The notes under the pieces: generated by a model
Told to the model about the DNA's origin: nothing
The model's input: only the letters and a program-made list of their open reading frames with translations
Database searches by the model: none
Position numbers and translations under genes: made by a program
Origin: a virus
Taxonomy: Duplodnaviria > Heunggongvirae > Uroviricota > Caudoviricetes
Length of the DNA stretch: 10,462 nucleotides
Virus record (IMG/VR): IMGVR_UViG_2606217104_000018
Reading direction: 5' to 3' (one strand)
Shown: positions 5,981-6,103 of the stretch, one piece after another
Numbering within the stretch: the stretch's first letter is position 1
Layout of the letters: each line of letters opens with the position of its first letter

Positions 5981-6103
5981 TGAGGCTGTATGACGGGGTG
6001 GGGGGCGTTTTCAGGACAAACCCGACCCCGCCGGGCACCGAACGCCTCCTCAAATTTTTATGCACGGGAATTTTTTGAAAAATAATCTGGCGAAAAAATA
6101 AGC
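5981..6103. other. Candidate cos / terminase recognition region: GC-rich imperfect inverted repeat followed by phased A/T tracts just upstream of terS
   Basis: CGGGGTGGGG (5994-6003) and CCCGACCCCG (6021-6030) match as inverted repeats at 9 of 10 positions, 17 bp apart. Then CTCAAATTTTTATGCACGGGAATTTTTTGAAAAATAATCTGGCGAAAAAATAAGC with A/T tracts at roughly helical spacing. Sits between HNH and terS, where HK97-like genomes place cos. Confidence 0.3.

Follow-up and report, generated by a model that had tools for sequence, protein, structure and literature searches.

Capsid-forming PICIs (cf-PICIs) of proteobacteria such as EcCIEDL933 need their own HNH, TerS and TerL proteins, take only tails from a helper phage and package exclusively; other PICIs carry helper cos or pac sites (bioRxiv 10.1101/2022.09.08.507074). 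For KpCIDSM30104, a cf-PICI of Klebsiella, cohesive ends have been reported, and concatemers form through them (bioRxiv 10.1101/2025.02.11.637232). The location or dissection of a cos site is absent from the texts of both preprints, and we found no measured physical ends of any cf-PICI in the accessible literature.

Cos sites have been mapped in complete phages with an HNH protein. In HK97 the small terminase (TerS) binds positions +15 to +29 beside a 10-nt 3' overhang, where it reads the G:C pair of position +21 together with the A-tract spanning +24-29 (PMC11331095). Cleavage at this cos is stimulated by HNH. The right end of the Burkholderia phage phiE125 has a 10-nt 3' extension, 5'-CGCCCGCTTC-3', and the ends of phi644-2 have also been mapped (PMC2920897). 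Here we compare these sites with the spacer between the hnh and terS genes of a cf-PICI.

An EcCIEDL933-like island with its own packaging genes

The window, by which we mean the whole 10,462-nt stretch of DNA analysed here, is an EcCIEDL933-like cf-PICI of E. coli. Pfam searches recovered the gene order published for proteobacterial cf-PICIs such as EcCIEDL933 (bioRxiv 10.1101/2022.09.08.507074), with capsid, protease, portal, connectors, hnh, terS and terL occupying 1716-8105. A primase-type AAA domain (19-807) and PerC (1258-1476) precede the major capsid gene (1716-2921), which is followed by the prohead protease (2961-3533), portal (3535-4746), head completion (4701-5081) and head-tail connector (5078-5374) genes. 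A PICI replication module is present, there are no tail genes, and the integrase and alpA are outside the window. Gene order and content are those of EcCIEDL933 and KpCIDSM30104 (Alqurainy et al.; He et al.), and the Klebsiella element also shares the spacer architecture described below.

The packaging module begins with an HNH endonuclease gene on the plus strand (5374-5814; Pfam HNH PF01844, E = 9e-8), which is likewise annotated as HNH in the 99%-identical copy of E. coli PCN033. Its 3' end is overlapped by a conserved ORF of 60 codons (5798-5980, plus strand) that ends just before the spacer; a Pfam search with this ORF gave no match, and its RefSeq relatives are hypothetical proteins. The sequence coding for its C terminus (..ECFRNR stop) is kept in many genera and missing in Xenorhabdus and some Serratia copies. 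Downstream of the spacer, and also on the plus strand, lie terS, encoding a P27-family small terminase (6104-6460; Pfam Terminase_4, E = 1e-23), and terL, encoding a large terminase with ATPase and nuclease domains (6444-8105; Pfam TerL_ATPase and TerL_nuclease).

The 5700-6500 stretch was found in 505 of 5426 complete E. coli genomes and was chromosomal every time. The annotation of the PCN033 copy matches ours and includes the 60-codon ORF. There a truncated AI-2 transporter gene and mdtJI come after the packaging module, whereas in the window phoQ lies downstream of the island (9002-10462, minus strand; Pfam), so near-identical modules occupy different chromosomal sites. Some cf-PICI relatives encode a large tape-measure-like protein directly after terL (LR881103, 2036-4333; another relative, 11637-15044); at this place the window (8119-8400) has only a 93-aa ORF that belongs to no family. 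A fragment from ECO95 was considered as the EDL933 island and rejected, as it matches other E. coli lineages.

Predicted cohesive ends in the hnh-terS spacer

The spacer between the small ORF and terS (5981-6103) is very probably the island's own cos site. An earlier note had named the gap between hnh and terS as the expected location of a private cos, and this was supported: the gap is the typical position in HNH-TerS-TerL systems, and the spacer aligns without gaps to the mapped cos sites of phiE125 and HK97. The placement at the junction of hnh and terS-terL is common to the window, HK97, phiE125, ST64B, D3, PhiS63 and phiC31. Records of cos phages with homologous TerS proteins begin 50-190 bp upstream of terS. 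We consider it likely that these 123 bp are the cos of the cf-PICI and are built like the HK97-type sites, which are HNH-dependent and leave 3' overhangs.

To place the cut we used an ungapped line-up with the phiE125 junction. The phiE125 record ends in ...CTTCGGGACCGCCCGCTTC and begins with GTCGAATTTTCACGCCCGCGAAATTAAAAATT; in register with this junction the ST64B spacer reads ...CCGGACTGCCCGCCCCCTCGAATTTTTATACCCGCGAAAAAT and the window ...CGGGCACCGAACGCCTCCTCAAATTTTTATGCACGGGAATTTTTT. With C6049 as +1, the overhang equivalent is 6039-6048. The predicted cohesive-end segment (cosN equivalent) would thus carry the 10-nt 3' overhang 5'-CGAACGCCTC-3' at approximately 6039-6048, and the top-strand cut is predicted between 6048 and 6049, uncertain by approximately 2 nt. 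The basis of this position is a similarity of approximately 40 nt to phages such as Salmonella phage ST64B and phiE125, whose TerS proteins, like those of many other cos phages, are only 29-37% identical to that of the island. Over the overhang 7 of 10 positions are identical to phiE125; at +1 to +14 the window is identical to phiE125 at 10/14 and to ST64B at 12/14 positions. Given how short the matching stretch is, we regard the similarity to phiE125 as moderate evidence.

The phiE125, phi644-2 and phi1026b sites share with the window the position between hnh and terS, a P27-family TerS (29% identity) and a C-rich overhang. When the left ends are compared (GTCGAATTTTCACGCCCGCG and CTCAAATTTTTATGCACGGG), the similarity at +1 to +14 is followed in each by an A/T tract. 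In contrast, the stretch between the cut and a G-rich block further upstream is unrelated between phiE125 and the window (9/32). The phiE125 group also consists of complete temperate phages, whereas the window is a tail-less satellite whose cut is predicted from sequence comparison.

Downstream of the predicted cut, the putative left-end recognition region (cosB equivalent), CTCAAATTTTTATGCACGGGAATTTTTTGAAAAATAA, spans 6049-6087. Within it, at 6063-6077 (+15 to +29), lies CACGGGAATTTTTTG, a GC core followed by a T-tract, which by analogy with HK97 is the predicted small-terminase site. This stretch is conserved and has the composition expected of an HK97-like site, although the two TerS families are not detectably related: HK97 gp1 (TerS) matches no Pfam family, and BLASTP detects no similarity between it and the island TerS, so that the transfer of the binding mode is an analogy. 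A PDB sequence search with the island TerS gave no match, and a single-sequence AlphaFold model was too poor for use (pLDDT 55.8). In a search of a large protein collection, every TerS homologue among the matches listed had an identity of 71% or more.

The earlier note had also described phased A/T tracts leading up to terS as a bent binding region. The tracts are there (T5 at 6055-6059, T6 at 6071-6076, A5 at 6078-6082 and A6 at 6093-6098), but the phasing at 10-11 bp did not hold up, its AA/TT power being matched by 2703 of 5000 shuffles. Among the periods tested, AA/TT spectral power was highest at about 18-21 bp. The A/T-rich half of the spacer plausibly holds the small-terminase binding site.

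Conservation of the spacer among cf-PICIs

We compared the spacers of E. coli variants and of 31 further elements, the latter from one genome per species in approximately 25 genera (Enterobacterales and Aeromonas). Across 32 cf-PICI spacers the majority fraction was 0.92 for the G-block (5994-6003), 0.87 for the predicted overhang (6039-6048), and 0.91 and 0.88 for the two parts of the left-end region (6049-6068 and 6069-6087). For codon positions 1, 2 and 3 in the first 300 nt of terS it was 0.90, 0.92 and 0.64. The G-block and 6039-6087 are therefore conserved on a par with the first two codon positions of terS, and much more strongly than the third. Variation within the spacer was greatest at 6021-6030, with a majority fraction of 0.55. 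The G-block is near-invariant as GGGGTGGGGG, followed by TTTCAGGACAA; the conserved stretch directly after it in the window, TTTTCAGGACAAA (6008-6020), has near-invariant GAC and A columns in two alignments.

The consensus fold of the family pairs the G-block (5995-6004) with the C-rich predicted overhang (6041-6050) through nine pairs, each present in 23-29 of 29 sequences, with no covariation. The conserved symmetry thus lies between these two segments and not between the arms of the inverted repeat considered below. Viewed as duplex DNA, a G4-N-G5-like motif occurs at the G-block and, in the opposite orientation, at the predicted cut.

Among E. coli copies that hardly differ elsewhere, the second G-run of the G-block (6000-6005) varies in length between 5 and 8 G, which is either homopolymer sequencing error or real slippage; slippage would shift the distance from block to cut. 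In Shigella flexneri SFBU1023 (approximately 2470-2500) about 96 bp, equivalent to window positions of roughly 6033-6128, are deleted between CCCCGCC direct repeats (6026-6032 and 6122-6128). The deletion takes the predicted cut, the predicted TerS site and the first seven terS codons, so this copy is probably packaging-dead. In a lineage with 89% TerS identity, many gene calls give a TerS of 165 aa, the 47 additional N-terminal residues being translated from the cos spacer. As a stop codon interrupts this frame in the window, the extension is probably an annotation artefact.

Breaks in particle-derived assemblies

Two sequence assemblies derived from particles of relatives break within the spacer. 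The record LR881103 (vB_KppS-Ant, 16.5 kb), which carries the label "induced prophage", is the cf-PICI of K. pneumoniae DSM 30104. It was deposited as an "Escherichia phage" and is described in its paper as a filamentous ssDNA phage. The virion DNA was sequenced with Nextera XT (PMC8006926), and its reads are public under PRJEB40148. The linear record ends in ...GGGGTGGGGGAGGTTTTCAGGAC (...TTTTCAGGAC, window-equivalent 6018) and starts 22 nt before terS. In the integrated copy of ATCC 13883, 69 extra bp lie between these two ends, corresponding to -31 to +38 around the predicted cut, whose equivalent there (in the region around 3,123,700-3,123,850 of NZ_KN046818.1) reads ...CACCCGCCCC|CTCAAATT, the bar marking the cut.

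In a second record, Klebsiella phage P12620-1 (PQ569648.1), the cf-PICI part begins at 90,644 and extends to the end of the record at 106,503, with boundaries at -74 and approximately +61 to +63. The missing pieces of both records are centred within approximately 7 nt of the predicted cut. The gaps would reflect the loss of the extreme ends of linear molecules in assembly, in relatives whose TerS is approximately 80-83% identical. The P12620-1 record as a whole (106.5 kb) looks chimeric, with unrelated phage DNA abutting the cf-PICI segment exactly where terS starts.

Contigs from other sources gave no such ends. In IMG/VR, one scan with TerS and two with the motif listed chiefly predicted prophages of isolate genomes, and no contig listed starts or ends at the motif; island-sized Logan/ENA contigs carrying TerS were bounded by attachment sites, not by cos.

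A G-block upstream of the predicted cut

The G-block of the window, GGGGTGGGGGG (5995-6005), lies approximately 54 to 44 nt upstream of the predicted cut, with G-runs at -54 to -51 and -49 to -44; its position is that of the left arm of an inverted repeat on which the earlier note had centred its proposal. We looked for a counterpart in phages with an HNH-type cos whose records are anchored at their ends. The G-run ends at -43, counted from the right end, in HK97, phiE125 and the Gordonia phage Mcklovin, at -41 in Pseudomonas D3, where the block GGGGTGGGGCGGG is a near match to that of the island, and at -44 in Clostridium PhiS63. A C-run occupies the same place in lactococcal sk1 (-49 to -42) and streptococcal Sfi21 (-48 to -39). 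In phiC31 GGGGGCGGGGCGG is found at -45 to -33, a position that depends on the overhang convention of the record. A G- or C-run near -43 was therefore present in all eight phages checked, and the G:C block thus ranges from phages of Actinobacteria and Firmicutes to HK97 and the cf-PICIs.

A G:C block approximately 41-56 bp upstream of the cut is a criterion that we derived from these eight records and not a published one; we found no description of an upstream G-block in HNH cos sites in the literature searched. Counted from the predicted cut, the last position of the block is -42 in ST64B, -44 in the window and -45 for the element from Klebsiella, a spread that leaves the cut position uncertain by approximately 2 nt. 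Placing the cut by its distance from the G-block instead would shift it by 1-2 nt.

As HK97 gp1 shows no similarity to the island TerS by Pfam and BLASTP, the G-block spans TerS families. A conserved component of the machine (TerL, HNH or the portal) might then read it, or it might exert a mechanical effect on the motor. With respect to the terminase genes the block sits where cosQ sits in lambda, and by this analogy it may have a comparable role. We tentatively suggest that the left arm is part of a subsite of HNH cos sites that the literature searched does not describe, in which a G:C block approximately four helical turns (around -43) upstream of the cut would serve as a cosQ-like signal for termination or end retention, a possibility that we rate below even.

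Other readings of the spacer

The spacer could instead be a control region for transcription or translation of terS-terL, such as an activator site, promoter, attenuator hairpin or RNA element, with the cos located elsewhere. A strongly conserved non-coding block directly upstream of terS would suit such a function, and the window has no obvious Shine-Dalgarno sequence. On the plus strand of the spacer, however, neither a promoter nor a terminator was predicted, an Rfam search gave no match, and the stability of the folded RNA was no better than that of shuffled sequences (z = -1.06). The family consensus fold contained zero compensatory pairs in a covariation test. On these grounds we rejected an intrinsic terminator or structured RNA element. 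The conserved blocks, moreover, resemble mapped cos sites, and the breaks of the particle-derived assemblies fall in the spacer, which leaves the control-region reading very unlikely.

According to the earlier note, the GC-rich inverted repeat itself was the nicking site. In this reading symmetric nicks would fall about its centre at approximately 6012, as in lambda cosN, and the A/T tracts would be the bent binding region. The repeat exists as placed: CGGGGTGGGG at 5994-6003 and CCCGACCCCG at 6021-6030 are complementary at 9 of 10 positions and lie 17 nt apart. HK97 and Mcklovin also have C-runs at approximately -20 to -30 that are able to pair with the G-block, and about 60% of the cf-PICI relatives keep CCCC in the stretch of the right arm. 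Yet the repeat is within chance expectation. With 10-nt arms, at most one mismatch and a loop of 3-40 nt as the criterion, a repeat of equal quality arose in 135 of 2000 shuffles of the 123-nt spacer (6.8%), in 92 of 2000 shuffles of its GC-rich half (4.6%) and in 19 of the 170 unshuffled stretches of 123 nt taken from this DNA (11%).

Nor did the family preserve the pairing. The two arms form a mean of 4.6 Watson-Crick pairs out of 10 in 31 relatives, and 4/10 in KpCIDSM30104 (copy Kp13883), which is experimentally active and packages very efficiently. Across 29 sequences 62.6% of cells were paired, against 62.3% and 63.7% when the partner was slid by one and two columns; a slid partner pairs equally well, so the pairing reflects a G-run facing C/T-rich DNA rather than a particular helix. 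Conservation in the spacer is lowest in the right arm, a lineage-specific C-rich stretch that is probably not required. In phiE125, HK97, D3 and Mcklovin the mapped ends lie approximately 43 bp downstream of the G-blocks, and the vB_KppS-Ant assembly is continuous through the left arm and loop, up to the base before its missing 69 bp. Homology puts the cut at approximately 6039-6049, outside the repeat and, by our prediction, approximately 40 bases downstream of it. Nicking within the repeat is thus highly improbable.

That the island is packaged by a headful (pac) mechanism or from the helper's cos, with no private cos in the spacer, has nothing specific in its favour beyond the helper cos or pac sites of other PICIs and is scarcely credible, given that published cf-PICI DNA concatemerizes by way of cohesive ends and depends on an HNH, a TerS and a TerL of its own, that no lambda cosN occurs in the island and that the HK97-type overhang of the helpers matches at only three of ten positions.

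Comparison with helper and lambda cos sites

We return to the reading of the spacer as a private cos of HK97 type. HK106 and HK446, the published helpers of EcCIEDL933, have the HK97 cos region at 95-97% identity. The HK97 cos resembles the spacer in the order of its parts: a G-block (-56 to -43), a 10-nt 3' overhang, a T-rich left end, and a GC core with a T-tract at +15 to +29. The letters differ. In the anchored register the window agrees with HK97 at 3/10 positions of the overhang, 7/14 at +1 to +14 and 6/15 of the TerS site, and the HK97-type cos is not present in the island at the sequence level. The comparison with helper cos sequences that the earlier note had called for therefore upheld its proposal of an island-private site, with a layout in common with the helper-type cos and a sequence of its own. 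Mutually exclusive packaging calls for, and is expected to rest on, sites that are alike in architecture and unlike in their letters, and the difference fits the exclusivity published for island and helper.

The lambda cos leaves a 12-nt 5' overhang, includes R repeats along with an IHF site, and does not need HNH. Its cosQ-cosN-cosB organization resembles the one predicted for the spacer: an upstream element on the end that is packaged last, then the nick site, then the sites for TerS, with the terminase genes on the same side of all three. The spacer differs in lacking both a lambda cosN and an IHF consensus. A search of the whole window for lambda cosN, GGGCGGCGACCT, with at most two mismatches found it only in phoQ, at chance level, and not in the island; within 5981-6103 there was no IHF consensus at up to one mismatch. 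A lambda-type cos was accordingly rejected.

Discussion

We observed a conservation pattern across the relatives, homology to mapped cos sites and breaks in particle-derived assemblies. From these we infer an arrangement in which the exact nick positions, the polarity and length of the overhang, TerS binding and any part played by the G-block are predictions. The invariant G-block at 5995-6005 and the conserved stretch after it would form the first element. A variable spacer of 12-14 nt would follow, which in this lineage is complementary to the G-block by happenstance and so gives the repeat. In the C-rich third segment the island TerL and HNH would make staggered nicks that leave a 10-nt 3' overhang at approximately 6039-6048. 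The fourth element would be the left-end region, where TerS may bind the GC core and T-tract at approximately 6063-6077. There TerS would start packaging towards terS and, once the next cos is reached, stall the motor so that packaging terminates.

Apart from its private sequence, the site would be an ordinary cos of the HK97/phiE125 type, which is already known. The G-block, with its broad conservation, may be the only element to merit specialist attention. If the proposal for this block is true, satellites hold it invariant and diverge only in the overhang and the TerS site, thereby gaining private packaging.

With base-level predictions for the overhang, the TerS site and the G-block, the bases that separate satellite from helper packaging become testable. 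The prediction would also permit cos-plasmids for DNA delivery based on cf-PICIs, and it flags defective copies such as the one in Shigella. The cf-PICIs spread between species by packaging nothing but their own DNA in capsids of their own, and the cos supplies the DNA side of this specificity.
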